From the IMG/VR virus record IMGVR_UViG_3300010282_000326: a stretch of DNA of 64,000 nucleotides; one strand, given 5' to 3'. Position 1 is the stretch's first letter, and each line of letters starts with the position of its first letter. A model generated the notes under the pieces. The model was not told the DNA's origin, did no database searches, and saw only the letters and a program-made list of their open reading frames with translations. Made by a program: the position numbers and the translations under genes. Below are positions 11,623-38,904 of the stretch, piece by piece. Source of the stretch: an uncultured virus (IMG/VR IMGVR_UViG_3300010282_000326) (lineage: Duplodnaviria; Heunggongvirae; Uroviricota; Caudoviricetes).

Positions 11623-12432
11623 ATGAAGATTGCTACAAAGAGTCAAAGACTGTTCAGCAGAATGCTTCTTGTTTTTTGCATGATGAGTATCATTGCATTT
11701 GCAAGCCCAGTGTTAATTCATGCTGAAGGTGGTCTAAGTGGTGACGGCATTGGCAGTTCTACTACTGAAGATGGTGGTAATTCTGGCGATGACGATTCAA
11801 TTTCTGATTATCTCAAGGGGTACACTCCAGTTACCGATGAGAATATGCAGAAAGCATCTAAGTTGGCTGGACCGATTGCAAGTGCTATCGGTACCGTATC
11901 AGGTTTCATTATTATTGTAGTAAGTGCAGGAATTTTTCTTGTAACAGCCTTAGACCTATGTTATATAGGTTTACCATTTACTCGTAATATGCTTGCCCCT
12001 CAAGCTGTAGGTGGAGGTGCACCTATGGGAGGCATGGGCATGGGTATGGGAGGTATGGGTGGCATGATGGGAGGTGCTGGAGCACAACCTCAGCCACGCA
12101 AATGGGTTTCAGATGAAGCAATCCAAGCAGTTGCTATGGCTAACCCTCAAGGTGGAGCAATGGGTGGCTCACCTATGATGGGTGGAGGCATGGGAATGGG
12201 TATGGGTGCTATGGGAGGCATGGGTGCTATGGGAGGCGGTCAGCCAGTACCTACCAAGTCTGTTATCCTCACATACCTTAAAAAGAGGTCATTCTTCATA
12301 ATTGTATTTACAATCTGTACAATTCTTCTTATGAGTTCTGTATTTACAGATTGTGGTATAAATCTTGCAGAGTTACTTTACAAAGTACTTAACAAGTTTA
12401 ATGGAGAAATCTCTAATGTATCTGTTGATTAA
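11623..12432 (+). CDS. membrane protein, paralogue family member 1, with Gly/Met-rich loops
   Basis: Signal peptide and TM helices; motif ALDLCYIGLP...WVSDEA..AV...YLKKR shared with the 14189 and 15125 genes. Confidence 0.8.
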   Translation: MKIATKSQRLFSRMLLVFCMMSIIAFASPVLIHAEGGLSGDGIGSSTTEDGGNSGDDDSISDYLKGYTPVTDENMQKASKLAGPIASAIGTVSGFIIIVVSAGIFLVTALDLCYIGLPFTRNMLAPQAVGGGAPMGGMGMGMGGMGGMMGGAGAQPQPRKWVSDEAIQAVAMANPQGGAMGGSPMMGGGMGMGMGAMGGMGAMGGGQPVPTKSVILTYLKKRSFFIIVFTICTILLMSSVFTDCGINLAELLYKVLNKFNGEISNVSVD

Positions 12433-12460
12433 TCAGATATAACAAAATAATCATATTTTT

Positions 12461-12496
12461 GGTGAGAGAATGAAAATTTCTCTCACCTTTCTTTTT
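12461..12496 (+). terminator. intrinsic terminator
   Basis: GGTGAGAGAA / TTCTCTCACC hairpin plus T-rich tail. Confidence 0.75.
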
Positions 12497-12557
12497 ATTT
12501 ATCTGATATCTAAATATTTTACATGATTGTTTTTTAGTAGAAAGTTGGTGATTTTCT

Positions 12558-12833
12558 ATGGAAATTTTTAGAGCATTATTAGATTCTGCAAAGAAGAAAG
12601 ATTCAACTCCAATGGAAAGATTGGAGGTAAATCGTGTAAGAACTACTATTGAGGATTTATGTGAGGAACACCTTACTAATAGTGATGACCTATTTAAGTT
12701 TGAGGCATTACCATCAGCGATTGATGCTGTTTTAGCTACACTTGAGGGTGAGAAGTTCCAAGAGAAGTATGAATTTCAACAGGTAGATGAAACTATTTTT
12801 GTTGTCAGATTGAAAGAGTTAAATATTCTTTAG
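12558..12833 (+). CDS. hypothetical protein
   Basis: 91-aa ORF at the head of a long operon. Confidence 0.75.
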   Translation: MEIFRALLDSAKKKDSTPMERLEVNRVRTTIEDLCEEHLTNSDDLFKFEALPSAIDAVLATLEGEKFQEKYEFQQVDETIFVVRLKELNIL

Positions 12834-12845
12834 GTTGGTGATTAT

Positions 12846-13358
12846 ATGGAAATGGATAAAACAAGTATAGCTATTAAGGTTTATGTGATAGCTGAAGAGT
12901 ATGGTGTTCCTCGCACTATAGTTAAATCTATAATTTCAAGTTATATTGATTATTGTAAAGATTTGATTTTACATGGAGAAAGGGTTGACTTTGTTGGGCT
13001 AGTTTCTGTAGTTCCAGATGTTCAAGTAGAGACTTATAATTCAACTCTTGCATTTGAGTGTACTAAACTTGCAGATGTTTTAGGAATTCCATATAATACT
13101 GTATTTATTATAATAAGAGAATATATTAATGGACTTATAGATGAATTATTAAATGGAAAGTCCGTAGAAATAAGGGGTATCGTTACTATGAAACCTTATT
13201 ATGAGAATGATAAGATTGGTGGAATACACGCTTCAATTTCTACGAGTATTAAAAAAGCATTATCTTTAATTGATTCTCCAGTTTCTTTTGTTCGTGTTCA
13301 TACACATAAGTTATTAAAGTATAATTTACAACAAGTTAATTCAAAGTTAGCTTCGTAA
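12846..13358 (+). CDS. tandem HU/IHF-like DNA-binding protein
   Basis: Two HU-like repeats: IAEEYGVP...LILHGERVDFVGLVSV and LADVLGIP...LLNGKSVEIRGIVTM. Confidence 0.55.
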   Translation: MEMDKTSIAIKVYVIAEEYGVPRTIVKSIISSYIDYCKDLILHGERVDFVGLVSVVPDVQVETYNSTLAFECTKLADVLGIPYNTVFIIIREYINGLIDELLNGKSVEIRGIVTMKPYYENDKIGGIHASISTSIKKALSLIDSPVSFVRVHTHKLLKYNLQQVNSKLAS

Positions 13359-13407
13359 AAGTAAATATAAAAATAATTATTATGTAGTTGTAAGGTGGTG
13401 TTAGGAT

Positions 13408-14160
13408 TTGACTGGTAAGACACACAAAGCAGGTGGAATGTTATGTAGTATAATAGGATTCGCAATCCTGCGAGAAAAAGGTCTTTTACTGCCAGAGGTT
13501 AGTGAAGGAATTCAGTGGTTAGTTATGTATCCATTCTGTATATGGGGTAGTCTAGCAAGTGATTTAGACCATAATCCAGATTCAATACCGATGAAGGATA
13601 TTCCTAGTACAGCAGTGAATAAAGTATTACATTTAACACACCCTTTAGTCAAGACAATAGAAAAGGCTTCATCAGAAAGCGAGAGAAAAAAGAATGTAGT
13701 TTATCAAGGTGCTAAGTTCCTAGATGCTAAGCATAGAAGTTGGCAAACTCATTCAGATTTAACACTTTATGTGTTAATAGGGCTTCTTTATTGTATTATG
13801 AATAATAAGTTCACATTTCTTTCTGCTTTAGATGTTTCTTTACTATCAATTGTATTAATGGGAATTTCGTTAGGTATAATAGCACATTTCATACTGGATA
13901 TGATAACGCCAGAAGGGGTATGGTGTATACCATTTGTTTTGGTCAATGCTTTTTTAGGAATATTTAATCCTAGACTAAAAATATTACCTGAGAAGATACA
14001 TTTCGTACCTCATAAGAAATTCTTTGCAACAGGTGGTAAATGGGAAGAGTTTATACAAAAAGTTCTTAAATGGGCTACAATAGTAGCAAGTATTTGGTTC
14101 TTCTTTACTCTTCTAGTACCAGATTGGAAATCGTTAATACCTTTTACTATTTCATTTTAG
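13408..14160 (+). CDS. membrane-bound metal-dependent hydrolase (YdjM-like)
   Basis: TH...GSLASDLDH...HRSWQTHS...HFILDMITPEG motifs; TTG start. Confidence 0.8.
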   Translation: MTGKTHKAGGMLCSIIGFAILREKGLLLPEVSEGIQWLVMYPFCIWGSLASDLDHNPDSIPMKDIPSTAVNKVLHLTHPLVKTIEKASSESERKKNVVYQGAKFLDAKHRSWQTHSDLTLYVLIGLLYCIMNNKFTFLSALDVSLLSIVLMGISLGIIAHFILDMITPEGVWCIPFVLVNAFLGIFNPRLKILPEKIHFVPHKKFFATGGKWEEFIQKVLKWATIVASIWFFFTLLVPDWKSLIPFTISF

Positions 14161-14188
14161 AAGAATAAATTTTAAGGAGGACATTGTT

Positions 14189-15097
14189 ATGAAGGTAACA
14201 AAAAGAAGCCAAAAAGTTTTGGCTATCATAATGTTGAGTCTTATGATGTTAGGCTCATTTATGTATCTTAAGCCTAAAGCAGGCGGTGCAGATACGAGTG
14301 CAGCAGAGGCTGAAGCAGCATTAAAGACTGCAGTTTATCAGGGTTCTATAACCACATCTTACGATATGCTTGATTTCGCAACTGATGAGTTCAAGACAGA
14401 AGGTGGTGGTTTCAAGCTTTACACTAGCATTTCTAATTACGATAATTACATTAATGCAGATGTATTTAGTACATTAAAAGCTGGTGAGAAGCAGAAGTTC
14501 TTAAAAGATGAGCTTCAGATTGGTAATGCTATGGTTTATGCTACTGAGAATGATGACCCATTAGGTGGTGGTGTTACATCTGATACACTTAATGGTATGC
14601 TTCAGACTTTACAGGATAAGTCAGGTATGGGTTCTCAGCTTTTAGCTACACTGCTTAGTGAAACTAAGCCAGATTATGCAACAGCAAATAGATTATATAA
14701 GCCATTCAGTGGTGTAGTTGGTACAATACTTGGTGTTATATCAATTCTCATTATGGCACTCTTAGGTATAACAATGGCACTTGATATTGCATTTATCGTT
14801 ATCCCTGCATTCCAGCTTATTATGGGTGGAGATGATGGTGGAAATGGTAAAGAGGGTAGTAAGTTCTCTAAGCTTATTTCAGTTGAAGCTCGTAATGCAG
14901 TAAATGCAGCCGAAGGTGGCGGAGGTGCAGGTGGTCAAGATGGCTCAGGACATAAGATGGCACTTGGTATATATTTCAAGGCTAGATGGAAAGGCTTAGT
15001 TATTCTTGGTATCTGTTTGTTATACTTAGTACAAGGTCAGATTTACAGCTTTGTAGCTTGGGTAATAGACCTTTTAAGTGGTTTCTTAGGTTTCTAA
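14189..15097 (+). CDS. membrane protein, paralogue family member 2
   Basis: ALDIAFIVIPAFQ...ISVEARNAV...YFKAR...CLLYLVQG. Confidence 0.8.
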   Translation: MKVTKRSQKVLAIIMLSLMMLGSFMYLKPKAGGADTSAAEAEAALKTAVYQGSITTSYDMLDFATDEFKTEGGGFKLYTSISNYDNYINADVFSTLKAGEKQKFLKDELQIGNAMVYATENDDPLGGGVTSDTLNGMLQTLQDKSGMGSQLLATLLSETKPDYATANRLYKPFSGVVGTILGVISILIMALLGITMALDIAFIVIPAFQLIMGGDDGGNGKEGSKFSKLISVEARNAVNAAEGGGGAGGQDGSGHKMALGIYFKARWKGLVILGICLLYLVQGQIYSFVAWVIDLLSGFLGF

Positions 15098-15124
15098 GTT
15101 TTTACTCATTAGGAGGTAGTGTAT

Positions 15125-15997
15125 ATGAGAAGGATTTTGAGTTCTGTTTTAGCACTACTCTTAATAATGGGGGTAGTCGTAAGACTATCCCCATTTTATT
15201 ATGTTAATGCTAGTGCTAATCCAACAATAACAATTGATGCAGGAAATACAACAGAAGTTAGCAAGATACAAGATTGTTGTATTCAAATAAATGACGATAT
15301 TAAAACAGATGTTTTAACTGGTAAGTCAGGTAATAAAAGTCAACAAGAACTTCAGTGGGATTATCTTGAATATAAGCTTGAAGCAGGTACTGGGGTTTCT
15401 AAAGGTGCAAAAACTACTATTACAATTACTATAAATCAAACAAGATATAAGGCTTTAAGTCAGGAGAAGCGACAAGACTTAATGGAGATAGCTTTAACAG
15501 GGATTCAGAATAGTGGTATGAGTACTACAAATAGAAATAAAATGTATAATTTCGTTTCTAAATCTGATGAGGCTACTGCAAGTTTAGTAAGACAGTTAAG
15601 TAATGATGTGAATGCTGATTTTGGTGAGGCTTATTCAATGTTTAAGCCATTTACAGGTGTTTTAGGTACTTTCTTAGGTGTTTTATCTTTATTGATATTT
15701 ATTTTACTTGGTATTACCGTAACTATAGATTTGGCTTATATTAACATACCAGCTTTCCAGATATTCTGTATGGGTGCTACAAAAGAGGAAAAGCCTAAGT
15801 TTGTTTCTATTGAAGCAGTTAATGCAGTTAAAGAGTCAGAAACAAAGCCAGACACAAGTTCTGGAGTAGCTTATTTCAGAATGAAGACAAAGCAATTTAT
15901 AGCTTTAGGTGTTTGCTTATTATATTTAGTTAGTGGTAAACTCTATGTATTGTTAGCAAATATAATTGACTACTTCCAAGGGGTATTACCAGATTAA
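15125..15997 (+). CDS. membrane protein, paralogue family member 3
   Basis: TIDLAYINIPAFQ...VSIEAVNAV...YFRMK...CLLYLVSG. Confidence 0.8.
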   Translation: MRRILSSVLALLLIMGVVVRLSPFYYVNASANPTITIDAGNTTEVSKIQDCCIQINDDIKTDVLTGKSGNKSQQELQWDYLEYKLEAGTGVSKGAKTTITITINQTRYKALSQEKRQDLMEIALTGIQNSGMSTTNRNKMYNFVSKSDEATASLVRQLSNDVNADFGEAYSMFKPFTGVLGTFLGVLSLLIFILLGITVTIDLAYINIPAFQIFCMGATKEEKPKFVSIEAVNAVKESETKPDTSSGVAYFRMKTKQFIALGVCLLYLVSGKLYVLLANIIDYFQGVLPD

Positions 15998-16016
15998 GTT
16001 AGAGGAGGTTTAACCT

Positions 16017-19000
16017 ATGTTAAGGTTGATACAAAAATACAATATAAAAAGGGGAATTGCATCTGTTCTTGCTTTGCTGATGCTTGTATCAGCTTTTGCT
16101 AGTATTAAGCCTTTAGATGCTAAGGCAGATTCAAATGACCGAAGGAAGACTTACTTAGAGCTTATGGCAGGTAAAGATTTAACTGATATAAGTGATGTTA
16201 GTGCATTAACGAGTGAGGATTTAAGATGTATAGCTTTATTCTTATCTAACTATTACTTACCTTTTTCTACAGTGTTAGATAATACTGATGCTGAGGTAGC
16301 AGCAAGCAATAAAGCTAATATGGTAGACTGTTTAAAGAAGATTGGTTTTGATGGAGAAGCAGCAGAACAAATTGTGGAAACAATTTATAAGCAGACTTTA
16401 GCTACTGCAAAGCCATTATATGTAGATGGTTTAGATGCTAATAGAACAATAGATTCAAGTGTGTCAGCTGATTGGACATCTTTTGGTTGGGGTAAAGACC
16501 ATAATGACCCAGGAGTTACTGGAAATTCTTTTAAGACACAGGATTATAAAGATCATGTAGGTGAAATGATTGATGACAAATACACTCCTTTAACATTATT
16601 TATTTGGGATTCAGTTATGAGAGACCAATCTGATAGACCATCAGATGGGTTAAATTCAGGAAATATAACTCTTTATTGGGATAATGATGGAACAATGCAA
16701 CCTTGTTTTAAGGTTGATAATTTAGTAAGAAACTTGTATATATCCATGACATCAACTCCAAATGGCTCAAGTCAAAAGAAAATGTCAGCTTGGGGTGACG
16801 GAGCTATGGGAAATGCAATGGCATTAATAAAAGGTGGAAAGACAGACACAGATGGGGTAGTTTTAGGTGCTGATGGTCAAGAGTTATCTGAAACAGAAAT
16901 TTATGCTTCATTTATCTTTACTGAGAAAATGTATGTAGACTGGGTTGGTAATATAGTAGCTGATTTAGGTACACATAGAGTAGTAGTTTTTCCAGCAGCT
17001 TGTAATCCTTATGTATTTTCACATATAGGTGAGGCTACTTCAACAGATGCAGCTGATTTAAGCCCACATGCTAATTTAATATCTGTTCAGACACAACAAA
17101 TGATAAAGAGAATGGGTAGTTGGTTTGATGTTGATGACAGTGGTTTAATTACTAGTTCAACTAATGGTGTTGCATCTATATTAACTGAAGTAGCTTCATT
17201 AGACCCAGATTATCAAACTAAGCATGACCTAAAAACTGGTGGTTATTTGTTATCTAGTAGTTTTAAGATACAATCAGAAATGAAGATGTCATATAATAAT
17301 ACTAAGCAAGTTACATGGGATTCTTATGAGAAGTTTTGGGGTGGTAATACATCTAAGGATTCAGCAAAACAATTGAAGAAAAGAGCTGCAGATATGAAGA
17401 TTTCTGGTACATATCCATATGATAACCCAGATGATGATTGGGCTGCAGATGGCGAATTCAATATGAGTTTTAGGACTGTAGTATTAGGTAATAAAGATAC
17501 TGTTTCAACATATTTAGTATATAAATCTATACCTAATGTAGATGAGTTAGAGGATGATGCTTTAGGTAGTCAGTCTTTTGTTGTAAATGATTTTATGAAG
17601 TCTAATTTGAAAGAGACTCCATATTTTAACTCTGTTCAGAGTGATATAGGTGCAGGAAAGTTCAAAGTTTTTACTGCGAATGCTTCTGATTCTGCTGAGT
17701 TGGCAAACTACTTTATAAGTTATGCTTTTGCTTATGCAAATAAAGATGCTGTAAATGGTGAGAGTTATAAAGGTAGTGAAGCTAAATATTATGTTGATAT
17801 AAAGTTTAATGATATCTTCCCTAATACTGATGGTGAGGCTATTGAGTGGGAAACAAATTCACATACTGGTGATAAAGTTATGAGTTTTGTTTACTATTTA
17901 TTACATCCAGTTGAAGGTGCAGCTTATGTAGCAACTTTATTTAAGAATAAAGTTTCAGGTATTATTGTAGGTTGGCATGAAGATGTAGTAGGTGGTACAG
18001 ATTCAAATTATACAACAGGTATGACAAAGTACTTAGGATTCACGGGGTATGCTACGAGTCCAAGTTTATATGATATAGATTGGATAGCAGGTATTTTAGA
18101 TACCTATAATAATCTTATAGTTTATGTAATAATATTGTTATGTGTGATATTGTTATGCTATGTATTAATAGGTAGTTTAACAATACAAAGAGGTGTAATT
18201 GGTGTATTTTGTTTTGCAATATTAGCGTTTTTACCTCCAGTTGCTATTAATGCAAGTGTAGAAATGATAAATAGAACTTGTGATAGTATTTATAGTAGTA
18301 AATTTGATTATTGGGCTATATGTCAGGTGGAGGGCTATTTACCTAAATTAAATGCAATTCAACAAGCTGATAATGTTAATGATTATATAGCAGCTTTAAT
18401 GGATATAAAGACTGTTAATGATAGTATTGCTGGTGAGTCAGAGTCTACATTCTCAGGTGTTAAATTAAAGTGGGTATCACCTAAGAAATTTAATGATATG
18501 ACAGCAGTAACAAATGAATTATCGGAGTCACAGCAAATGTCATCAACATTTTCTCCTACTTTTATTCATGTATTATCAAATTCTTTAGCTTCTACAAATT
18601 CAACTGAGGAATTTGTTCAAGATGCAGATTACTTATATAGAGATTATTTAGATATTTATAGGTATGCTTCAACAAGTTATAATTTATATACTACATTTAA
18701 TTTAAATGACTCTATTAGGAAGTCAGGTACAAAAGTTTCACTTGATGGTGGTGATACTACAGTTAGTAATGCTATTTTAGCAGGTGCAAAAACATATAAT
18801 TCTGTTGGTGAGAACTGGTTATCTTGTACTTATGCTTATATCCCAGATTCAAGTGTTAAAGATACATTTAATCTTTCAAAAGATGGCATGGCTACACAGT
18901 TTGTACCTAGAAATATTAAGTACCTTGATAGTGGTTTAAACTTTGCAATGTTTGCTGTAGATGCTAATAGCCCTAAAGATAAAAATACAGCCTATTCAAG

Positions 19001-21785: not shown

Positions 21786-21800
21786 GGAGGTTAGTTTATT

Positions 21801-22985: not shown

Positions 22986-22990
22986 AAATC

Positions 22991-28681: not shown

Positions 28682-28683
28682 TT

Positions 28684-29664: not shown

Positions 29665-29666
29665 TT

Positions 29667-29813: not shown

Positions 29814-29830
29814 TGTAGGTAGGTGTTCAG

Positions 29831-31615
29831 ATGTTAGGTATAATTATAGGAATTTTTCTATTTCTTTTAACAATACCAATAAAGACTGTAGAACTTGGTA
29901 TGAAAGTAAAAGAAAAAGGGAAAAATATAAAGGATAAAATTAATAATACCTTATCATCTGATGGTGAGGGCGAAGGTTCAGATATCGGTAGTGTAATAAA
30001 AGGTGTAACTGGTACAGCAGGTGGTGCTGTAGGTAAAGCTAAAGGTGTTGCCAGTAAAGTTAATAGCTTGAACCCAAAGATAGGTTTTAAGGTAAAGAAT
30101 AAAAAGGGTAAAGCAACTGGTAAAAAAGGTCTTAAGGATAGTAAAGCAGGAAAAGCAGTTACAGTAGCAAAGAAAGGTATAAAATTAACTATCAAGGCTT
30201 TAAAGGCTTTAGTTATGTTTATTCGGTCTATTGCAGCTGTAATTTCTGCTTTAGGTGCTTTTACTACTTTAATAATAATTTTTTTGGTTTTAGTTTTAAT
30301 AGCAATAATAGCAGGAGTATTTTTAGTGGTATTAAATGATGGTGGTATTGCTGGAGATTCTTCCTCTACTGCTTCAGGTACAGATGCTCAGAGTGAAAGT
30401 TCAGATGGTGGTATGTCTGATGAAGAAGCAGCGGAATCTTGGTTAAAACACTGTGATAAAGTATATAAATTGATGTTAGACTCTAAGACTACTTATAGTC
30501 AAACTAATTGGACTAAAATAAAAATAGATGATAAAGAGTATAAATGGAGACCTGATTGTTCTGGTACAGTAGCGGTTTATCTTTGTTCTTATGGTGAAAT
30601 TGATAGTACATCACATACTGTAGGAACACTTGTAGAAGCAAGTTATAAGTCATTCCAAGTGTTACAAATTGGTAAGGATATAAAAGAACCAGATGATTTA
30701 AGGGCTGGAGATATTTTTGCAGCTACTGATAAACATGTGTTGATTATTACTAAATATGATGCAGATACAGATACAGCTTCAGGTTATAATATGCCAGGTA
30801 CTGGACATACTGTTGAAGAGTGGTCAAATAAAGTTACAAAGTCAGGAAATTACTTTAAGATTTCAGGAACAAGTAGTGGTAATTATGATTATGTAATAAG
30901 ACCTAAAGGATATAAGAAGGCAGCAAGTGGAGATTGGGTATTTTATTTCCAAGGTCAGTCACCATGGGGAAGTTGGGATTATACTGGTATTAATAGTGCA
31001 ACCTATCAAGGTCAAGCTTGCGGTTTAACTAGTACATCTATGGTTGTAGCAACTTATGCACAAAAGAATGGTGCTGATATTAATAAGGAAGTTACAGTTC
31101 ATAAAGGTTCAGATAGTGGTGGTTCTTCTTCAGACCCATCTGGAGCTTGTAGAAAAGTAGCAGGAGAAACAGCTAAAGTACCAATATACTCACCTCCAGC
31201 TCTTAGAGAAAAAGGTTATGAGAAGTTTGGATATATTCCTTATACAGCAGGAGAACGAGGTGCAATTCCAGATTTGATTAGTTTGTATCCAGAGTGTAAA
31301 ATAACTTGTACATCAGATAAAGATGGTGCAGTAGATTTAGATGAATTGGATAAGGTGTTAGCAAAAGGTGGTTGTATGATTGCTTGTTATGGTAAACCAC
31401 CATCAAAAGATGGAGTTGGTGTTTGGACTGAGCGGGGACATTATGTTGTAATAAGAGGTGGAAATCAAAAAGATGGATATGATGCAGCAGACCCAAATTT
31501 AAAGCATGATACAGGTGAGAGTGGTATAAAAGAATGGGCACCATATCGTGAGTGGAAATTTGATAAAGCTTATGTAGAAGATACAAGTTATTATTACTTT
31601 ATAGAACCAAAATAA
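29831..31615 (+). CDS. membrane-anchored cell-wall hydrolase with NlpC/P60-like and C39-like peptidase domains (VirB1-type role)
   Basis: PDCSG...LRAGDI...KHV (NlpC/P60-like), then YFQ...W...ACGLTSTSMVV...GHYVVI...ADP (C39-like). Confidence 0.7.
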   Translation: MLGIIIGIFLFLLTIPIKTVELGMKVKEKGKNIKDKINNTLSSDGEGEGSDIGSVIKGVTGTAGGAVGKAKGVASKVNSLNPKIGFKVKNKKGKATGKKGLKDSKAGKAVTVAKKGIKLTIKALKALVMFIRSIAAVISALGAFTTLIIIFLVLVLIAIIAGVFLVVLNDGGIAGDSSSTASGTDAQSESSDGGMSDEEAAESWLKHCDKVYKLMLDSKTTYSQTNWTKIKIDDKEYKWRPDCSGTVAVYLCSYGEIDSTSHTVGTLVEASYKSFQVLQIGKDIKEPDDLRAGDIFAATDKHVLIITKYDADTDTASGYNMPGTGHTVEEWSNKVTKSGNYFKISGTSSGNYDYVIRPKGYKKAASGDWVFYFQGQSPWGSWDYTGINSATYQGQACGLTSTSMVVATYAQKNGADINKEVTVHKGSDSGGSSSDPSGACRKVAGETAKVPIYSPPALREKGYEKFGYIPYTAGERGAIPDLISLYPECKITCTSDKDGAVDLDELDKVLAKGGCMIACYGKPPSKDGVGVWTERGHYVVIRGGNQKDGYDAADPNLKHDTGESGIKEWAPYREWKFDKAYVEDTSYYYFIEPK

Positions 31616-31628
31616 GTGGAGGTAGTTT

Positions 31629-32408
31629 ATGAAAAATCAAAAGTTAAAATTTATTATTGGGCTTGTAGTCATAGCCTTACTATTATTTAGTGTTATATTT
31701 ACACGAGTGCGAAAAAATAAGTTTCATTCAAATAACAGGGATAATATAGTTATTGACACAGATTCAAAGGAGTATTCTCAAGAGGAGTTAGATGCACTAA
31801 ATGAACCAATAGGGGGTATTGCTCCTTTAGAAGATACTTCAAGTGATACAGATGCAGTTACTGGTGAGTTAAATCAAGAAGAAGTAGATAAGGCTATTAA
31901 GGAGTTAAAAGAAGATAATGAGGTAGTGAAGCCAGATAAGACTACTGAAACCACTACAGAGGCTACTACAGAAGCAACTACAGAGTCATCAAGTGAAGAT
32001 GATGGTGGAGAAGGACTTGCAGCTAATGAGGATAAGGCATCACAGGTACCAGTTGCAAAGCCAGAATCTGAATCGGAAAAATATTGGCAGTCTTTTGTAG
32101 ATTCTGTGTCGACTGATATGTTTGAAGAAGTTGTATTTTCTGAGGCAATAGTTTCAGATGTAATTAAGGGTAATTTGCTTGGAAATATTTATGGTTGCCC
32201 ATTTACAACATCAGATTTTAGAAATATTTATAAAAATGGTTTTTTTGCTAATGTAACTGATTGTGAAATTTCCGAGTTAGATTATGGTGCTACAAGTTGT
32301 GTTGCTAAAATAACATTTGCTGATGGTTCTACAAAGAATTATAGTGTACATTTTGAATTAGATGAATTTGGTACACATATAAGTGATTTAGTTTGCACTG
32401 AGCAGTGA
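31629..32408 (+). CDS. bitopic membrane protein
   Basis: N-terminal TM, TTEA linker, acidic soluble domain. Confidence 0.8.
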   Translation: MKNQKLKFIIGLVVIALLLFSVIFTRVRKNKFHSNNRDNIVIDTDSKEYSQEELDALNEPIGGIAPLEDTSSDTDAVTGELNQEEVDKAIKELKEDNEVVKPDKTTETTTEATTEATTESSSEDDGGEGLAANEDKASQVPVAKPESESEKYWQSFVDSVSTDMFEEVVFSEAIVSDVIKGNLLGNIYGCPFTTSDFRNIYKNGFFANVTDCEISELDYGATSCVAKITFADGSTKNYSVHFELDEFGTHISDLVCTEQ

Positions 32409-32424
32409 TTAGGAGGTTAGTTAA

Positions 32425-34722
32425 ATGGGTATAGGAGATATGCATTCAAATGGGTTTGATGCTGATGCATCACGATATGAGAGAGAAAATAGGTTAAATC
32501 CTGCGGAATTTGCACCAGGTCAAGATGCAACATTCCAGCAGGATATTTTCGCTACTAGTTCAGTTCCAGCCAACACTGGTGAAATGGGAGATATATTTGG
32601 CTCAGGTGCAGGTGGTGGAGATATTTTTGGTGGTCAGAATGATATTTTTGGTGGTCAAGGTGGAAATTCTTTTGATGCATTCGGTGGTGCAGGCTTAAAT
32701 ATGCAAAACGGTATGAACCCTATGGGTATGCAAGGTCAGCAACAAGGTATGTCTGAGGAAGATAAATTTTGGAATGCTGTCGGTACAGGTGCTAAAGGTA
32801 CTATGAATTTCTTTAAAGATTTCACATCTTCATTCAAGGAAGTAACACCTTTATTTTGGCAGAAGTTTGGTTATAAATCAGCAGTAGTTGGTATAGTTGC
32901 TTTAGGTATTGGTATAGTTTTACGCTTGTTTGGTATTAAGGATGGTTTACAACTTGCTATTGGTGGTTGTCTAACTTCAGCAGTTGGTGTTATGACTATG
33001 ATGTTTAATACAGAAAAGGCTAAGACTTGTTCAAGTGATTATAAGAGTAGCAATAATACAATAACAGGTTTAAATACACAGCCAGCTATGGATTCTACTG
33101 GTTTTGATGATTTTTCAAATAATGAAGGTACAGAAGATTGGGGTAGTTCTCAAGGTGATGATTGGGGAAATGACTCAGCTGATGATTGGGGTGGCTCAGA
33201 TGATGAATGGGGCGATTCCGATGATGATTATAGTAGTGATGATGAAGATGAAGATTGGGATTTCGATGATAATGCTTTTGATTCAGGTGCTGATATGGAA
33301 CAAGTAAGTAAAGAAGATGCACTGAATGAAATGCAAGTTATAGATAAAGGTATGTACACAAGGCAGTATCTTTGGGATATGTTTACAAAGGTTTTACCTA
33401 CAATGAAGCCGAATTTTGCTACTATGAGAGAAATAGATGAAGATGATGATTCATTCTTAGAATGGGGTGATTCATTAAGAGAAGCAGCTCAGGTAGCAGG
33501 TTGTAAGGAAGAGTCCTTACCAGAGCTTTTAAGATTACAAGAAAATTTATTTACTATTATTCTTACTTGTGATAGACCTGTTGGTTTTAAGCCAGATGCA
33601 GTTGGTCAGGAATTAGCAAATATTTATGCGTATCAAGATGGAGAATTCAATGCAGGGGTATTTTCAAAAGTTGATACAGTTGGTAGTAAGTGTATAATAA
33701 CTATATTTACTGGTGCTTCAGCTATGATATCATTAAAGGATATGATGTTAGTTGAAAAAGATTTCTTCTTAAATGCTGATAATACAATTCCAGTAGTTTT
33801 AGGTGTAAATCAGTTAGGTAAGGTAATTAAAGCTGATTTTAGAAAACTTGAAAGTATTATAGTTACTGGTATGCCCCGTTCAGGTAAGTCTTGGTTTGTT
33901 CAGGCTGTTTTAACTCAAATGTGTGCTTTCTTATCACCTAAAGAGTTAACATTTTATATTTGTGACCCTAAAGAGGGTATATCAGATTTTAAGTCTTTCT
34001 GTTTACCTCATGTAAAGAAGTTTGTTAGTGGTGATGCAGCTATTGTTAAGACTTTGAAAAACATTGTAAGAGTAGAAGGACCGAGACGTAAGAAACTTAT
34101 TGGAGATGCAGGTTTTGTTAATATTTGGGATTATAAAGAAAGATACCCAGATGTCGAGATACCTATATTATATGTGGTAATTGATGAGGTAGTTACTCTT
34201 GCTGAAAGAATGGATAAGGAAGTAAAGAAAGAATTTATGGGGTACTTAATTGAGTTAATTTCTCAGTTACCTGCTTTAGGTATCAGAGCATTTCTCGTAC
34301 CTCATGTAATTAAGAATGATATTATACCAAAAACAGCTACAGACTTAGTGCCTTGCAAGATTTCAGTTAAGGGTGATGCAGACCATATTGAAAAAGCAAC
34401 AGGTTCTAAGCCTAAAGATTTCCCTTATAAACTTTCAAATGCAGGTGATATGGCTGTTAAGTTATCAAATGTACCTGAGACTATGTATGTACATGGACCA
34501 GCTTTAACTAAGAGTAATCCAGAAAATAATGAGTTATTTGATTATATGCGTAGAGTTTGGGGAAAACTTGAGCCAGAGACTTTACTTGATTCAGTTGCAG
34601 CTAATGAAGAAAATGAGAAGGCTAATGAGGAAGTATTAAAACGATTACAAGTTGAGTCTGAGGATGGTGGGTTTAATCCTTTAGATGATGATAGTGATGA
34701 GGATTTTGATTTATTTGGTTAG
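32425..34722 (+). CDS. membrane-anchored FtsK/SpoIIIE-family ATPase (TcpA-like coupling protein or DNA translocase)
   Basis: Two TM helices; IPVVLG...SIIVTGMPRSGKS, FYICDPK, PILYVVIDEV, ALGIR motifs. Confidence 0.8.
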   Translation: MGIGDMHSNGFDADASRYERENRLNPAEFAPGQDATFQQDIFATSSVPANTGEMGDIFGSGAGGGDIFGGQNDIFGGQGGNSFDAFGGAGLNMQNGMNPMGMQGQQQGMSEEDKFWNAVGTGAKGTMNFFKDFTSSFKEVTPLFWQKFGYKSAVVGIVALGIGIVLRLFGIKDGLQLAIGGCLTSAVGVMTMMFNTEKAKTCSSDYKSSNNTITGLNTQPAMDSTGFDDFSNNEGTEDWGSSQGDDWGNDSADDWGGSDDEWGDSDDDYSSDDEDEDWDFDDNAFDSGADMEQVSKEDALNEMQVIDKGMYTRQYLWDMFTKVLPTMKPNFATMREIDEDDDSFLEWGDSLREAAQVAGCKEESLPELLRLQENLFTIILTCDRPVGFKPDAVGQELANIYAYQDGEFNAGVFSKVDTVGSKCIITIFTGASAMISLKDMMLVEKDFFLNADNTIPVVLGVNQLGKVIKADFRKLESIIVTGMPRSGKSWFVQAVLTQMCAFLSPKELTFYICDPKEGISDFKSFCLPHVKKFVSGDAAIVKTLKNIVRVEGPRRKKLIGDAGFVNIWDYKERYPDVEIPILYVVIDEVVTLAERMDKEVKKEFMGYLIELISQLPALGIRAFLVPHVIKNDIIPKTATDLVPCKISVKGDADHIEKATGSKPKDFPYKLSNAGDMAVKLSNVPETMYVHGPALTKSNPENNELFDYMRRVWGKLEPETLLDSVAANEENEKANEEVLKRLQVESEDGGFNPLDDDSDEDFDLFG

Positions 34723-34746
34723 TTTTTTAGATAATGGAGGTTAGTT

Positions 34747-36336
34747 ATGAAAAATTTACCAACCTTATATGAAGATTATCAAGAACTAATGTTGGACTTA
34801 AGTATATTTGGAAAAATTATTGAAGTTCCTCAACAAAGTCTAACTGATATGAAGGAATCTTTGTTTGAGGAATTCAAAAGAAGAAAGCCATTACCAACAT
34901 TAGAGGATGAAAGATATAAGTTAAGTAAGTTAGTGTCATCCGATTTTTTAATAGCTTATAATGAAGAAGTAGAACTACATGAAAATGAAAGTATAATAGA
35001 CTTTAGTAAATCTGAAAAATCTGAAAGAATTGATACAAGTATTGATGGTACTATATCAGATGAGATTAAGTCTTTATTTTCATATGAGCATCAAGTTAAG
35101 GAAATTGATAAAGAAGAAATTAAGAAGAAGTATATGTCTGATGATGAAGAGTTTATAGGTGGGGTAGCTTCTACAGAAAAGTTATTTAATTCTAGTCCAG
35201 AAAATAATAATTTAGTATTAAATGATGAGGAAATTGAAGGTTTGGGTAAATCGTTAGTTAATGAAGGTTTACAAGTTGATATGGATTTAGTTAATTCTGT
35301 AGGAACTGAAAGTTCTGAATTGAAAATAGAAGTTGATTCTGATATCTATGAGTCTAATGAAATATCTGTTGATGATGGAATTTCGGTAGATATAGATTTA
35401 GCTGATTCTGATGAAGATGATTCCTATGATGAAGATGAATCTTATGAGGAAGAAGATTCTTATGATGAAGTTGAGGAAGGTGACTCTTATTTAGAAGATG
35501 AGGAAGATGAGGAGGATGATTCTTACTCAGAGGATAGTGAAGATGGTGAAGACGAGTCTTATGATGAAGACGAGTCTTATGATGAAGATGAATCTTACGA
35601 TGAGGATGAGGAAGATGATTCCTATTCAGAAGATAGTGAAGATGACGAAGATGATTCCTATGGTGAAGATGATTCTTATGATGAAGACGAGGAAGATGAG
35701 TCTTACAATGATGAAGATGAGTCTTATGCTGAAGATGAGGAAGATGATTCCTATTCAGAGGATAGCGAAGATGACGAAGACGAGTCTTATGATGAAGATA
35801 ATGATGAAGACGAGTCTTACGATGAAGATGATGAAGACGAATCTTATGATGAAGATGAGGAAGATGATTCCTATTCAGAAGATAGTGAAGATGATGAAGA
35901 CAATTCTTATGATGAAGATGAGGAAGATGATTCCTATGAGGAGTCTGACATAAGTTATAAGGAAGAAATTGATAGTACTGTTGAAGAAGTTAAAGATACA
36001 AGTAATATAAATGTTATTGATGATAAAGTTCAAGCATCAAGTGTTGTTGATGCGATTTTTAATGATGATACAGATTTAGGTTTTGTGGATAAGTTAATTG
36101 AAGAGAATACTGAAATAAATATTCCACCTGCACCTATAATGAAAGAAGTTTCAACAAAAATAAATGCAGTAGAAACTGCACCTAAAGAGGAAGAGCCTAC
36201 TGATTTGCGTCAGTTTATAAGAAAGCATCCAAGGTGTGAAATTTCTTTTGCATTAAAATACTTTACCAAGAAGCAAATTAATGATGCAATAAAGATGGGT
36301 AAAGTGGTTAAAAAAGGTAATATATTAAAAATTTAA
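34747..36336 (+). CDS. very acidic repeat protein with a small basic C-terminal domain
   Basis: SYDEDEEDD repeats; tail LRQFIRKHPRCEISFALKYFTKKQINDAIKMGKVVKK. Confidence 0.85.
   Translation: MKNLPTLYEDYQELMLDLSIFGKIIEVPQQSLTDMKESLFEEFKRRKPLPTLEDERYKLSKLVSSDFLIAYNEEVELHENESIIDFSKSEKSERIDTSIDGTISDEIKSLFSYEHQVKEIDKEEIKKKYMSDDEEFIGGVASTEKLFNSSPENNNLVLNDEEIEGLGKSLVNEGLQVDMDLVNSVGTESSELKIEVDSDIYESNEISVDDGISVDIDLADSDEDDSYDEDESYEEEDSYDEVEEGDSYLEDEEDEEDDSYSEDSEDGEDESYDEDESYDEDESYDEDEEDDSYSEDSEDDEDDSYGEDDSYDEDEEDESYNDEDESYAEDEEDDSYSEDSEDDEDESYDEDNDEDESYDEDDEDESYDEDEEDDSYSEDSEDDEDNSYDEDEEDDSYEESDISYKEEIDSTVEEVKDTSNINVIDDKVQASSVVDAIFNDDTDLGFVDKLIEENTEINIPPAPIMKEVSTKINAVETAPKEEEPTDLRQFIRKHPRCEISFALKYFTKKQINDAIKMGKVVKKGNILKI
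35405..35945 (+). repeat. imperfect coding tandem repeats (SYDEDE / DDSYSEDSEDDE)
   Basis: GATGAGGAAGATGATTCCTATTCAGA recurs several times. Confidence 0.8.
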
Positions 36337-36348
36337 GGAGGCTTTAAG

Positions 36349-38613
36349 ATGAGGAAAAAGCGTTTAGTTGCGATGGGTTTAGTTTTATTGTTAACCTCAT
36401 CCATGTTGACAGGTTGTGGTGATACTCAGGATATCGAAAGTCTGAATAAGATGCAGTCTTTAAATTCTGAGTCAAATGCAAAGGATAATTACAAGTTATC
36501 CTATTCAGATAAGCAGGATATGATTTATGCTCAAGTTTCTGATAGAACTTTATTAGATTTATCTGCTTTGGATGCTTGTGATGATAATGAAGTCCAAGAA
36601 GTAGTCAATTATATGGATGCAGTTGATGCAGTGCTTGAAGGGGGTACTGCTAAAGAAGATGGAGTTATAGATTCAAAGTTTACTGATTATTTATTAGCAG
36701 AGTTTGAAAAGACTCCTTATTACTGGCAGAGGCAGAGAACAACTATAAGAGGTATTGATTCCTCGTCAAGAGCTATTGTTGTTGATGTTGTTTATCATAC
36801 TATCGATTTTGAGAAAACTGTTATTCCAGATAGTACAATAGCAAAGGGTTGTGATAATTATGATAAATTGATGGCAACAAGATATACAAGATATTGCTCA
36901 ATTCTTCAGACTAAGTATCAGAATCCACAGTCTGATTGGCAATCCCAGATGACACAGTTTGAAAAAGTTTATGGTAAGGCTTCTGATATTTATGAGTCAC
37001 AGAGAAATATAACTTTAACAGATACAGTTTTTGAAACTGGTAATCAAAGAACTTATAATGGTGTTATAGATACAGAGGCTGAAAAGTCAGGTGCTTCTAT
37101 GACAGTAAGATATGTATTAGTACCTAATTATGTTTTAGGTGTTAATTTAGGTCTTGTGTGTGAGCATATGTATGTAACTAATTATAAGTTGGATAATGAT
37201 GTTACAGAAGGTTTATCAATCTTCAACGAAGAGGGGTATGCTACTATAACAGATAATGTTTATGCATTATTATATAGTTATTTTACTGCTATAGATGAGG
37301 CAAATTTTGCAGGACTTTATAAACTGACAAGTAATTTTGAAAATATTGATAAATATTGGGATGATGTGTTTGATACAACTTACTTTAAGCATGAGAACTT
37401 TACTTTATCAGTATTTAGTATAAATGGTACAAATGTTACTTGTGGTGTTACAGTTGCAAGTAAAGTTCGTGGTAAGGGTACTGATATTACAATGCCTAAT
37501 TACAAAGATAGGTATTATTTTGAATTAGAGTTAAATGATGAGAAGTTAAAGGTTAAGAATATGGTACTTCTTAGTAGAGAAATTGTAGGTGAGCCTGCAA
37601 TTACTACTCAAGATGCTGGTACTTCTGGTTTTGCAGCTTCGATTGAACTTGATAACGATGATAAAGTTGCAATCGAAAACTTAATTTGTAACTTTGGTAG
37701 CTTACAGTTACTTGGTGATGTTACATCTGATGATTTTGGTGATGTAGTTGATATTTCCATGAGTGCTAATGATTTAAATTTACTTAAGGATAATATGATT
37801 ACTACAGTAGGTAGAGTTGCTACAAATAAAGATGCTGAAGGCGAAAATGATACAACAAAAGTTACTATAGATGCAAAGAAGAAGGTTGTATTCTTGCTTA
37901 ATTATATGCAAGGTACTTCAAATTATGCATCAGTTAAATGTAGAGAACTTTTCCAAGCAGATAATAATTCTATAACAGAAGCAACATCTGTATATGATTT
38001 CATTCTTAAGGGTGGTAAGTGGTATATTATGAAGTATGCACCAGAGAATGTTGTTAAGTTAGATACAACAAATCTTACAACAACTGGTTCATTATGCTTA
38101 GTTAGCCCAGGCAAGGTTGAGTCTTATACATCTCAGGTTAAGGGTACTGCTTCAACAAGTATAGATACTGCTTCAGATACCAGTGTATCTTTTGACCATG
38201 AAGTAAAGATGCCAGTATTGAAGTCAGGTACAAAAGAAGAAGGTGTTAAACTTTTAACTGGTTCTGATATTTCAGATGATACTTTTGCAGAGCAATTAAT
38301 TATGTATGGCTTTGGTGCAACAGATTTCGATGAAACTGGGGTAGAAGATGTTGATAGTCTTTTAAGTGATGGTAAGTCTTTACTTAAAGATGTTATTGCT
38401 TACTTTGAGAATGTAAATAGTGGTGCTTACACTGTTGATGATGAGGAAGATAGGTTAGCAGCTAAGGATGAACTTGCAAATAGATGTAGAGACTTCAGTA
38501 GCGATTTAAGAAATGCATCAGGTACTGTTGATACAGCAGATACTGGAGTTAGCTTTGATAACTTAGCAGATGCTTTTGCAAGCCTTGAGGATACTATGAT
38601 ACAAGCTAATTAG
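36349..38613 (+). CDS. large lipoprotein of the conjugation-like operon
   Basis: Lipobox MLTGC; 754 aa. Confidence 0.8.
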   Translation: MRKKRLVAMGLVLLLTSSMLTGCGDTQDIESLNKMQSLNSESNAKDNYKLSYSDKQDMIYAQVSDRTLLDLSALDACDDNEVQEVVNYMDAVDAVLEGGTAKEDGVIDSKFTDYLLAEFEKTPYYWQRQRTTIRGIDSSSRAIVVDVVYHTIDFEKTVIPDSTIAKGCDNYDKLMATRYTRYCSILQTKYQNPQSDWQSQMTQFEKVYGKASDIYESQRNITLTDTVFETGNQRTYNGVIDTEAEKSGASMTVRYVLVPNYVLGVNLGLVCEHMYVTNYKLDNDVTEGLSIFNEEGYATITDNVYALLYSYFTAIDEANFAGLYKLTSNFENIDKYWDDVFDTTYFKHENFTLSVFSINGTNVTCGVTVASKVRGKGTDITMPNYKDRYYFELELNDEKLKVKNMVLLSREIVGEPAITTQDAGTSGFAASIELDNDDKVAIENLICNFGSLQLLGDVTSDDFGDVVDISMSANDLNLLKDNMITTVGRVATNKDAEGENDTTKVTIDAKKKVVFLLNYMQGTSNYASVKCRELFQADNNSITEATSVYDFILKGGKWYIMKYAPENVVKLDTTNLTTTGSLCLVSPGKVESYTSQVKGTASTSIDTASDTSVSFDHEVKMPVLKSGTKEEGVKLLTGSDISDDTFAEQLIMYGFGATDFDETGVEDVDSLLSDGKSLLKDVIAYFENVNSGAYTVDDEEDRLAAKDELANRCRDFSSDLRNASGTVDTADTGVSFDNLADAFASLEDTMIQAN

Positions 38614-38622
38614 GAGTCGGAT

Positions 38623-38904
38623 ATGGAAATTACGAGGATTAAAGTAGATTCATTATCACCGAAAGAACCAAATACTTGTGCAGAATTTTCTATAACTTTT
38701 GATGATATGTTGGTAATACATAACATCAGAGTTATAGAAGGTAAGAAAGGCTTATTTATAGCATTTCCATCAAGTGGTGAAGCAAAGATAAAAGATAATC
38801 AAAAGAGATATTTTGATGTTGTTCATCCTACGAATCAAAAGTTCAGGCAAATAATAGAAGATGAAGTTCTTAAGAAGTATTATGATGAAGTAGCAAAAAA
38901 ATAG
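38623..38904 (+). CDS. spoVG: SpoVG-family nucleic-acid-binding protein
   Basis: MEITRIKV...SITFDDMLVIHNIRVIEGKKGLFIAFPS...YFDVVHP. Confidence 0.92.
   Translation: MEITRIKVDSLSPKEPNTCAEFSITFDDMLVIHNIRVIEGKKGLFIAFPSSGEAKIKDNQKRYFDVVHPTNQKFRQIIEDEVLKKYYDEVAKK

Follow-up and report, generated by a model that had tools for sequence, protein, structure and literature searches.

A probable pXO16-like conjugation module and a strand-polar GGGGTA motif on a giant element of presumed clostridial host

We analysed a stretch of 64,000 nt of the uncultured virus record IMGVR_UViG_3300010282_000326 (hereafter the window), which was read out of a replicon of about 272 kb; the protein index records a contig of 272,762 bp for the window's own VirB4-like protein. 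The G+C content is about 33% across the window, its long open reading frames (ORFs) all lie on the + strand, and the GC skew is positive in each 2-kb bin (+0.19 to +0.44). The range 11,623-38,904 holds 18 co-oriented non-nested ORFs, and all frames of at least 80 aa in it are on the + strand (Table 1). It is in all likelihood the conjugation module of a giant, pXO16-like extrachromosomal element whose host would belong to the low-GC gut-type Clostridia, and judged from its sequence it is a distant, gene-for-gene counterpart of tip ('transfer of israelensis plasmid'), the transfer locus of plasmid pXO16 of Bacillus thuringiensis sv. israelensis.

Terminator-like hairpins at 12461, 22991 and 38911 split the range into three units, the last of which closes just 3' of the SpoVG gene. 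Only a few module ORFs are assigned by Pfam, namely YdjM, FtsK_SpoIIIE and SpoVG, with HU on the borderline and ParA/CbiA and DUF87/AAA_10 below threshold. Replication genes surround the module, with a clamp loader upstream and, on the downstream side, an SNF2 helicase, GyrB- and GyrA-like topoisomerase II subunits, a DnaB-like helicase and an exonuclease of the RNase T type. A PHROG scan of 52 window ORFs detected neither virion nor packaging families, and promoter-like sites showed no enrichment over shuffled sequences (79 vs 95.5 ± 8.1 and 69 vs 69.4 ± 7.7).

To a large extent this layout agrees with an initial annotation made from the letters alone. Its co-oriented genes were recovered, the membrane-anchored FtsK/SpoIIIE ATPase, the YdjM-like hydrolase and SpoVG all pass their Pfam cut-offs, the HU-like protein passes narrowly (23.5 bits against 22.4), and the 1,922-aa membrane protein has the expected character with 7 hydrophobic segments. 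The bitopic proteins named there are found at 28684-29664 and 31629-32408, and of its several lipoproteins one was recovered, at 36349-38613.

Table 1. Genes and other features of the module and its borders, in window coordinates
Feature	Coordinates	Strand	Evidence
Clamp-loader-like AAA+ ATPase; collinear backbone, outside the transfer machine proper	10249..11553	+	Pfam DNA_pol3_delta2 1.2e-30; PHROG clamp loader 2.6e-51; 39% identity to equally placed pXO16 'AAA family ATPase'
First module gene: signal peptide and transmembrane (TM) segments, Gly/Met-rich region	11623..12432	+	Hydrophobic segments 14-32, 92-110, 219-237; 34.5% identity over 220 aa to pXO16 neighbour
Terminator-like hairpin 3' of first gene	12461..12487	+	10-pair stem, then T run
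Conserved 91-aa cytoplasmic protein	12558..12833	+	35% identity over 85 aa to pXO16 homologue at equal position; no family match
HU/IHF-like DNA-binding protein	12846..13358	+	Bac_DNA_binding 23.5 bits vs cut-off 22.4, two stretches; 31% identity to pXO16 homologue
YdjM-family membrane metal-dependent hydrolase	13408..14160	+	PF04307 3.9e-10, 39.9 bits; 31% identity to pXO16 'metal-dependent hydrolase'
Paralogue A: signal peptide, extracellular domain, two C-terminal TM helices	14189..15097	+	32% identity to pXO16 homologue
Paralogue B, built like A	15119..15997	+	36% identity over 191 aa to pXO16
1,922-aa polytopic membrane protein (giant protein); two large extracellular regions, Lys/Gly/Ala-rich tail	16017..21785	+	7 hydrophobic segments; 34-35% identity in blocks to 1,834-aa pXO16 protein
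Two-TM protein; cytoplasmic domain, acidic C-terminal DIDLFG tail	21801..22985	+	Hydrophobicity; 34% identity over 324 aa to pXO16
Terminator-like hairpin between two transcription units; holds one GGGGTA	22991..23033	+	19 pairs
ParA/MinD-like cytoplasmic protein: N-terminal domain, long acidic Q/D/E/Y repeat, C-terminal domain with degenerate P-loop	23116..25290	+	CbiA 4e-4, AAA_31 1.5e-3, both below cut-off; tandem coding repeats
411-aa cytoplasmic protein, always adjoining the VirB4-like gene	25304..26539	+	29% identity over 425 aa to pXO16; no family match
VirB4-like ATPase, Walker A GGGKS	26552..28681	+	44.4% identity over 99% of length to pXO16
Bitopic membrane protein with extracellular domain	28684..29664	+	One TM segment 12-30; 36% identity over 281 aa to pXO16
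Putative membrane-anchored cell-wall hydrolase: papain-type (DCSG...H) and Peptidase_C39_2-like domains	29831..31615	+	Three hydrophobic segments; motif read; C39_2 profile
Second bitopic protein, acidic Thr/Glu-rich linker	31629..32408	+	Hydrophobicity
FtsK/SpoIIIE-type putative coupling ATPase: low-complexity N-terminus, anchor, acidic linker, motor to C-terminus, acidic DFDLFG tail	32425..34722	+	PF01580 4.5e-13
Highly acidic repeat protein, small conserved C-terminal domain	34747..36336	+	Repeats; weak C-terminal match to pXO16 neighbour, E 0.013
754-aa lipoprotein	36349..38613	+	Lipobox LTGC at residue 20
SpoVG-family nucleic-acid-binding protein, final gene of unit	38623..38904	+	PF04026 3.9e-25; SpoVG gene at equal pXO16 position
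Terminator-like hairpin closing the module	38911..38940	+	13-pair stem and T run
SNF2-type helicase directly downstream	38994..40604	+	SNF2-rel_dom and Helicase_C; 42% identity to pXO16 'DEAD/DEAH box helicase'
Polar GGGGTA motif	1..64000	+	85 copies on +, 3 copies on -

To place the module among known replicons, we ran tblastn with the VirB4-like protein against PLSDB, and the best matches were ten near-identical B. thuringiensis plasmids of about 349.6 kb (44.4% identity, 99% query coverage, E 1e-170), which their length and the accessions given in the reviews identify as pXO16; weaker matches with 23-26% identity exist in Bacillus plasmids of 136-216 kb. The gene order in the annotated region of NZ_CP083136.1, a copy of pXO16, is the same as in the window. 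It turned out that 12 of the 18 module ORFs match pXO16 at E <= 1e-5 (29-44% identity) with order and strand kept. For the whole window, 22 of 53 ORFs have a match, all of them collinear, window 8,571-63,961 corresponding to pXO16 185,079-244,016, and pXO16 contains no window match outside 185-244 kb. No pXO16 match was found for the hydrolase, the lipoprotein or the second bitopic protein, and the acidic protein matches in its C-terminal part alone. The ParA-like protein matches by its N-terminus alone (5e-4) and so was not counted, while SpoVG gave no tblastn match, yet an annotated SpoVG gene sits in its place on pXO16. A DNA-level search with 26552-34722 returned nothing from plasmids or phages, and 50,697 phage records searched by tblastn with the VirB4-like protein gave no match either. 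The GC skew of pXO16 is positive in 34 of 34 10-kb bins, and PLSDB types the plasmid as 'non-mobilizable'.

Two reviews (PMC9673590, PMC6199540) describe pXO16 as a 350-kb plasmid with its coding sequences all in one orientation and a suspected phage-like nature. According to PMC9673590, the tip locus comprises 25 kb and 16 coding sequences within the replication region, was delimited by bioinformatics and experiment, and contains two ATPases and a wall hydrolase; its machine is presented as a novel type IV secretion system (T4SS), whose relaxase and oriT 'remain unidentified' in 2022. Single-stranded DNA (ssDNA) is the transferred form according to PMC6199540. Besides, the reviews report that pXO16 mobilises plasmids without mob and oriT, that such plasmids require an intact single-strand origin in the right orientation, and that the minimal transfer time is 3.5-4 min (PMC9673590, PMC6199540). 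The initial annotation's general picture, a divergent Gram-positive T4SS-like system of giant elements with an FtsK-type ATPase and no visible relaxase, is upheld by the domains, the collinearity and the scan of 52 ORFs. Its proposal of a poorly described conjugation class has to be given up, because the module belongs with the tip-type system of pXO16, which PMC9673590 already presents as a novel T4SS.

The family to which the module belongs is broad. A word-indexed protein search with the VirB4-like protein scored 7,997 candidates, and 602 clusters reached E <= 1e-5; all of the 120 matches listed are at least 64% identical to the query, and they lie on contigs of up to 499,233 bp. In species genomes, VirB4-like relatives were found in an Oscillospiraceae bin (59%), a Clostridia bin (51%), Clostridioides difficile CD160 (42%) and a Lachnospiraceae bin (31-32%). 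A metagenome scan gave 66 loci with VirB4 identities of 33-77% on contigs of up to 388,124 bp. Single-protein scans of genome and viral contigs confirmed no relative, while alignment-based scans did find relatives.

Gene recurrence was counted in 38 metagenome loci of at least 21 kb with 10-kb flanks; genes upstream of the giant protein fall outside these flanks. The two-TM, 411-aa, VirB4-like and FtsK-like proteins are each present in 38 of 38 loci in the order and on the strand seen in the window, and the giant protein (36 of 38) and the SNF2 helicase (35 of 38) also keep order and strand. With equal order and orientation, the first bitopic protein (28684) recurs in 31, the acidic protein in 28, the ParA-like protein and the lipoprotein in 20 each, SpoVG in 13 and the wall hydrolase in 3; the second bitopic protein (31629-32408) also recurs in 3. 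Among ORFs of at least 150 aa in these loci, 509 are on the + strand and 21 on the - strand. The core therefore consists of the giant, two-TM, 411-aa, VirB4-like and FtsK-like proteins and the SNF2 helicase, and the wall hydrolase and acidic scaffolds vary. For instance, the isolate C. difficile CD160 (locus L004, a 40-kb contig of 25% G+C) has the two-TM, ParA-like, 411-aa, VirB4-like (42%) and FtsK-like (43%) proteins together with the lipoprotein, the last at 27.5% identity over 596 aa.

Two ATPases stand at the centre of this core. In a Foldseek search with a low-confidence model of the VirB4-like protein, 6 of 7 matches at E <= 0.001 are the VirB4 of Thermoanaerobacter pseudethanolicus (top 4ag5/4ag6; 1.4e-6 to 3.2e-4), and the seventh is the DndH C-domain. 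The FtsK-like protein (32425-34722) carries an FtsK_SpoIIIE domain well recognised by Pfam (4.5e-13; 49.6 bits vs cut-off 24) and a single hydrophobic anchor segment at residues 148-166. It also matches the PHROG family FtsK-like (2.8e-29), and a second motor match spans residues 425-742 of 765, after which about 20 acidic residues remain at the C-terminus; no FtsK_gamma, helix-turn-helix or other DNA-reading domain was detected in it at E <= 0.01. Its best solved relatives are 6o1w, a 'DNA translocase coupling protein' (2.1e-6) that we take to be TcpA of pCW3, and the FtsK structure 2ius (6.8e-6). With the FtsK-domain protein of pXO16 it shares 38.3% identity over 459 aa (E 2.7e-106), and its gene lies 3' of VirB4, as in pXO16. 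The acidic tails of the FtsK-like ATPase and of the two-TM protein (21801-22985) end with the same last residues, D(I/F)DLFG, and their pXO16 homologues end otherwise; these tails may be a shared docking peptide.

The predicted wall hydrolase (29831-31615) had been described as a dual peptidase. For its C-terminal domain this is supported by a Peptidase_C39_2 match, which scores 20.2 bits for the window protein against 32 bits for a relative with 73% identity (cut-off 24); 8 of 24 relatives match C39_2, 4 of them above the cut-off. The first domain is assigned as papain-type from a DCSG...H motif read in the sequence and a weak CHAP match in one relative. A homologue search with the whole protein gave 2 proteins, probably because low-complexity words swamped it, while an exhaustive search with the last 404 residues gave 28 representatives; a sequence search of PDB returned nothing useful. 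In the N-terminal membrane region of the hydrolase relative P0255, T4SS_pilin (PF18895) comes near its threshold (25.5 vs 26.6 bits).

Paralogues A (14189-15097) and B (15119-15997) share 32% identity over 176 aa (3.5e-23) and are candidate surface or pilin-like channel subunits. The product of the first gene (11623-12432) is weakly akin to them, judging by weak cross-matches to their pXO16 homologues. In the ESM Atlas, paralogue A has unnamed clusters below 0.9, the nearest of which is labelled viral with a score of 0.85, a mere lead. The 1,922-aa protein is a candidate channel scaffold with a VirB6/TcpH-like role. The MinD-like protein of the initial annotation, here called ParA-like (23116-25290), retains a weak CbiA/ParA match of 20.8 bits, below the cut-off, and its P-loop is without lysine (GDRGTGVTT); therefore it is probably no ATPase, and a non-catalytic scaffold or positioning factor is the probable role. 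The HU-like protein (12846-13358) is a candidate accessory of DNA processing. For the YdjM-family protein (13408-14160), 587 relatives with invariant His/Asp columns were found, and its model is confident (pLDDT 91.1). Solved kin of this model were sought by Foldseek, with a best E of 0.43, and by VIA-align, which gave generic helical matches with a best Z of 7.0. These searches neither confirm nor exclude a possible kinship of the YdjM family with P1 nuclease or phospholipase C, which would make it a candidate nicking enzyme.

From these parts a working model can be proposed for the window's copy. The polytopic 1,922-aa protein, the two paralogues, the bitopic proteins and the lipoprotein would build an envelope-spanning channel, and the membrane-anchored C39/papain-type hydrolase would open the peptidoglycan locally. 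The VirB4-like ATPase might power assembly or transport, and the membrane-anchored FtsK/SpoIIIE-type ATPase would act as the coupling protein which feeds DNA to the channel, in the manner of TcpA in pCW3. The acidic repeat proteins and the ParA-like protein, whose P-loop is dead, could serve as scaffolds. Candidates for DNA processing are the HU-like and 91-aa proteins, SpoVG, the YdjM-type hydrolase and the neighbouring SNF2 helicase. Homology with pXO16 suggests ssDNA as the substrate.

Several accessory features lie outside the module. A 46-nt direct repeat (41797-41842 and 41947-41992) stands 5' of the GyrB-like gene and contains two near-consensus promoters (TTGACT, 17-nt spacer, TG, TATAAT; 11 of 12 matches), and a strong terminator-like hairpin (41896-41931) lies between the repeat copies. 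Besides, an MscS-type mechanosensitive channel (58147-58920), an S41 (PDZ) peptidase (59378-60484) and a SIMPL/DUF541 protein (49204-49935) are found among the replication genes of the element.

The second main feature of the window is the hexamer GGGGTA, which occurs 85 times on the + strand and 3 times on the - strand, while dinucleotide shuffles expect 11.0 ± 3.4 on both strands together. Within 11,623-38,904 the counts are 31 and 0. The mean spacing is 759 bp, with 2-7 copies per 4-kb bin, and 85 of the 120 GGGG runs in the window continue with TA. Copies occur in all codon phases (35, 25, 15) and between genes (10). Inside ORFs, 75 copies were observed vs 7.7 ± 2.6 under codon permutation and 17.8 ± 3.4 under a synonymous shuffle which keeps the proteins, a 4- to 10-fold enrichment over codon-aware controls. 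The reverse complement occurs at its expected low frequency, and the polarity thus reflects enrichment on one strand. Compared with a first-order Markov model, no hexamer is more over-represented than GGGGTA, either in the window (z 23.5) or in pXO16 (z 73.6). The complete pXO16 has 658 copies on the gene strand vs 5 on the other, with 41-57 copies per 25-kb bin and a polarity that never switches, and the consensus there extends to AGGGGTA(G/T). A 50-kb stretch of pBtoxis, which has the same host as pXO16, was taken as control and has 10 vs 5. The hexamers with the highest raw skew (GATGAT, TGATGA, GAAGAT etc.) were rejected as signals; they are Asp/Glu codons of co-oriented acidic genes, and their counts equal the Markov expectation.

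The motif is also kept across the family. The 66 metagenome loci (1.09 Mb) contain 1,459 copies of GGGGTA on the + strand vs 48 on the - strand, and 3,404 vs 197 copies of the core GGGTA. A hexamer containing GGGTA is among the top three over-represented in 42 of 47 loci of at least 12 kb and ranks first in 33; L031, L034, L039, L040 and L041 are the loci without one in the top three. Some sub-clades are dominated by the variants GGGTAT(C), AGGGTA and CGGGTA, and the C. difficile and Lachnospiraceae loci have little or no GGGGTA. The Lachnospiraceae bin locus L006 (12.5 kb), for example, has no GGGGTA and a polar repeat of its own, ATGACCCTGGCT-like, with TGACCC at 13:2 and CCCTGGC at 8:0. Different sub-clades may use different polar motifs.

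A literature search for the GGGGTA hexamer returned mostly primer sequences. The motif lies on the G>C strand in both the window and pXO16, which would be the lagging-strand template if the skew reports the direction of replication. Because a Bacillus plasmid and clostridial elements share the motif, while another plasmid of the same Bacillus host is without it, an element-encoded reader is more likely than a host protein. Our favoured guess, a tentative one with the balance still somewhat against it, is that the motif marks where primase starts on the lagging-strand template, the strand that would also be transferred. Primase recognition sites of phage T7 are of the 5'-GGGTC-3' class, from which the GGGTA core differs by the last base. 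The guess is further prompted by a separate DnaG-type CHC2 zinc-finger protein encoded by both the window and pXO16, and by the fact that in 33% G+C a six-base site is by chance too rare for priming every kilobase or so. In the window this protein (60714-61277) matches Zn_ribbon_DnaG weakly (E 0.0086) and is homologous to the annotated CHC2 protein of pXO16. Genes at 242.5-244.0 kb of pXO16 match the CHC2 gene and the neighbouring conserved gene 63074-63961 in collinear order. The primase appears to be split into separate polypeptides.

GGGGTA might alternatively be a strand-specific site of nicking or entry, a signal of the Chi kind, or one that acts at the RNA level, the last because co-oriented genes place the motif on every transcript. 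Going further, the GGGTA-core motif might be the missing cis-acting signal itself, a site distributed at intervals of ~0.5-0.8 kb along one strand of the whole element, which an enzyme of the element reads as a primase start on the lagging-strand template (and transferred strand) or as a strand-specific nick or entry point, so that no single oriT or classical relaxase would be needed. We consider this unlikely, but if true, it would explain why oriT and relaxase of pXO16 were not found, how the giant replicon is quickly converted to duplex in the recipient, and why Bacillus and gut Clostridia have the motif in common.

Several observations weigh against reading 11,623-38,904 as a conjugation module. 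The VirB4-like protein (26552-28681) stays below cut-off in Pfam (DUF87 22.1 bits; AAA_10 17.5 bits, cut-off 27.5) and in NCBIfam, both for VirB4_plasma (2.8e-9; 35.2 bits vs 590) and for conju_CD1110 (2.1e-7; 29.6 bits vs 325), and indeed none of the module's genes passes a curated T4SS-family threshold. Its AlphaFold2 model, built from a shallow alignment, is poor (pLDDT 49.8), and a sequence profile built on 16 relatives matched no solved chain at E <= 1. The wall hydrolase is without pXO16 counterpart at 1e-5 and recurs in just 3 of 38 relatives. The top NCBIfam match of the FtsK-like protein is EssC of type VII secretion (2.7e-13), and because of this the ATPase alone is no proof of DNA transport. 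The function itself rests on pXO16 experiments as told in two reviews (PMC9673590, PMC6199540). The label 'VirB4-like', taken over from the initial annotation, thus stands for a remote relationship, weakly but consistently indicated by fold and profile likeness, and not for membership by curated standards.

The EssC match also opens another explanation, in which the locus is no DNA-transfer machine and serves protein secretion or surface assembly of a type VII-like kind, or is the device of a giant phage. The element is phage-like with its co-oriented genes and its own replisome genes, and the viral label of the nearest ESM Atlas cluster of one paralogue (0.85) gives a lead in the same direction. 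Against this stand the 52 ORFs without virion or packaging family in PHROGs, the empty search of 50,697 phage records, the VirB4-like ATPase as a hallmark of T4SS, and the homologous pXO16 locus, which according to the reviews was tied experimentally to conjugation (PMC9673590); taken together they make a machine of this kind extremely unlikely. Relaxase families were not detected among the 52 window ORFs (18 searched at E <= 0.01, 34 at E <= 0.001), and a repeat search of 9,000-42,500 revealed no oriT-like inverted repeat or clt-like array, but solely terminator hairpins and acidic repeats within coding sequence. The pXO16 record, searched over its full 349,599 bp, gave 0 matches at E <= 1 to PF03432, PF02486, PF01076, PF03389, PF08751, PF13814, PF07514 and PF00589 (Relaxase, Rep_trans, Mob_Pre, MobA_MobL, TrwC, Replic_Relax, TraI_2 and Phage_integrase), and identical searches were positive in control genomes. 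An ordinary relaxase-dependent T4SS, with a conventional or atypical (TcpM-like) relaxase and oriT elsewhere on the ~272-kb replicon, could still account for the module, as 64 of ~273 kb were read and many window ORFs are without detectable family; the pCW3 relaxase is atypical and was long missed. However, the complete pXO16 record gives no match at E <= 1 to the seven relaxase families or to tyrosine recombinases, PLSDB types it as 'non-mobilizable', and specialists still reported relaxase and oriT as unidentified in 2022 (PMC9673590), so such an arrangement seems improbable.

The absence of relaxase families from both the window ORFs and pXO16 would also suit a pump for double-stranded DNA (dsDNA), in which the FtsK-type ATPase reads the polar hexamer, as FtsK does with KOPS and SpoIIIE with SRS, and moves duplex into the recipient like Streptomyces TraB. 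The motif keeps one orientation over the whole element (658:5 in pXO16, with 41-57 copies per 25 kb), and the minimal transfer time of 3.5-4 min and the mobilisation of plasmids without mob and oriT, both from the reviews (PMC9673590, PMC6199540), are compatible with it. However, PMC6199540 reports ssDNA transfer for pXO16 and states that, for mobilised plasmids, both the single-strand origin and the way it is oriented matter. In the FtsK-like protein, neither FtsK_gamma nor any further DNA-reading domain was detected at E <= 0.01, and just about 20 acidic residues follow the motor. The VirB4-like ATPase and at least 10 membrane proteins are conserved with this protein, none of which a TraB-type pump needs. 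Moreover, the motif shows no converging dif-like switch, and its density of one per 0.5-0.76 kb seems far above that of KOPS or SRS. We regard such a pump as very unlikely. The relaxase-independent dsDNA translocation suggested by the initial annotation thus finds no support, given the VirB4-like and membrane proteins conserved with the FtsK-like protein in 38 of 38 loci, the absence of a gamma domain at E <= 0.01 and the ssDNA transfer reported in review. Its idea of a polar hexamer read by the ATPase survives in part: the hexamer is real and conserved in the family, but nothing links it to the ATPase. The annotation had also held that a known MPF_FA/FATA type together with a MOB relaxase would remove the relaxase-independent idea; curated VirB4 cut-offs were missed, and no relaxase family was detected in the 52 window ORFs or pXO16.

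A conjugation module of the tip type, our preferred reading, gives pXO16 a wider setting. The two reviews treat this plasmid as a rare curiosity of the B. cereus group with a unique transfer machine (PMC9673590, PMC6199540). The tip-type machine, in the same gene order, extends to giant elements of gut-type Clostridia and forms a large and diverse family, whose diversity separates the conserved core from replaceable parts. The GGGTA-core motif, shared by the family on one strand, offers a testable handle on the start of replication or transfer. The open literature searched gave no report of pXO16-like elements from Clostridia or metagenomes; GGGGTA may already be described in subscription papers on the plasmid.

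Among known transfer systems, Streptomyces TraB with clt resembles the module in its central FtsK-like ATPase and in having no relaxase detected. TraB works essentially alone and reads the local clt repeat via a C-terminal DNA-binding domain, whereas the module conserves the VirB4-like, giant, two-TM and 411-aa proteins with the FtsK-like one in 36-38 of 38 relatives, and its ATPase has no C-terminal DNA-recognition domain (E <= 0.01). The T4SS of Tn916 and ICEBs1 (MPF_FA/FATA) has the same parts list, with a VirB4-like protein, coupling ATPase, wall hydrolase, VirB6-like polytopic and small bitopic proteins. The module differs in that its VirB4 scores 29.6 bits vs the conju_CD1110 cut-off of 325, and in that no MOB_T/Rep_trans relaxase occurs in the 52 window ORFs or the pXO16 record.

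PMC6199540 sets pXO16 beside pCW3 of Clostridium perfringens. The Tcp system of pCW3 and the module have in common an FtsK/SpoIIIE-type coupling protein replacing VirD4, a VirB4-like ATPase, a large polytopic protein and peptidoglycan hydrolases. Detectable sequence similarity is confined to the ATPase cores, the Tcp proteins being compared by parts list and not directly. In addition, pCW3 has a known relaxase and an oriT-binding protein.

The GGGGTA motif is strand-polar and replicon-wide, as are KOPS, SRS, Chi and T7 primase sites. In contrast to KOPS, SRS and Chi, its polarity never switches and none of it converges on a terminus; those signals are also far below GGGGTA in density and polarity (one per 0.5-0.76 kb; >100:1 in pXO16).

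With pXO16 tip the module shares co-oriented genes, a positive GC skew, polar GGGGTA and the lack of a detectable relaxase. The nearest binned relatives of the window are Oscillospiraceae, Clostridia, C. difficile and Lachnospiraceae, not Bacillus; nothing in pXO16 clearly corresponds to the window's wall hydrolase, acidic proteins, second bitopic protein and lipoprotein, extra genes separate the giant and two-TM proteins in pXO16, and the D(I/F)DLFG tails are not in pXO16. What the two have in common above all this is the order itself, which runs in both from the clamp loader through small membrane proteins, the YdjM-like protein, the paralogue pair, the giant protein, the two-TM, 411-aa, VirB4-like, bitopic and FtsK-like proteins to SpoVG and the SNF2 helicase.

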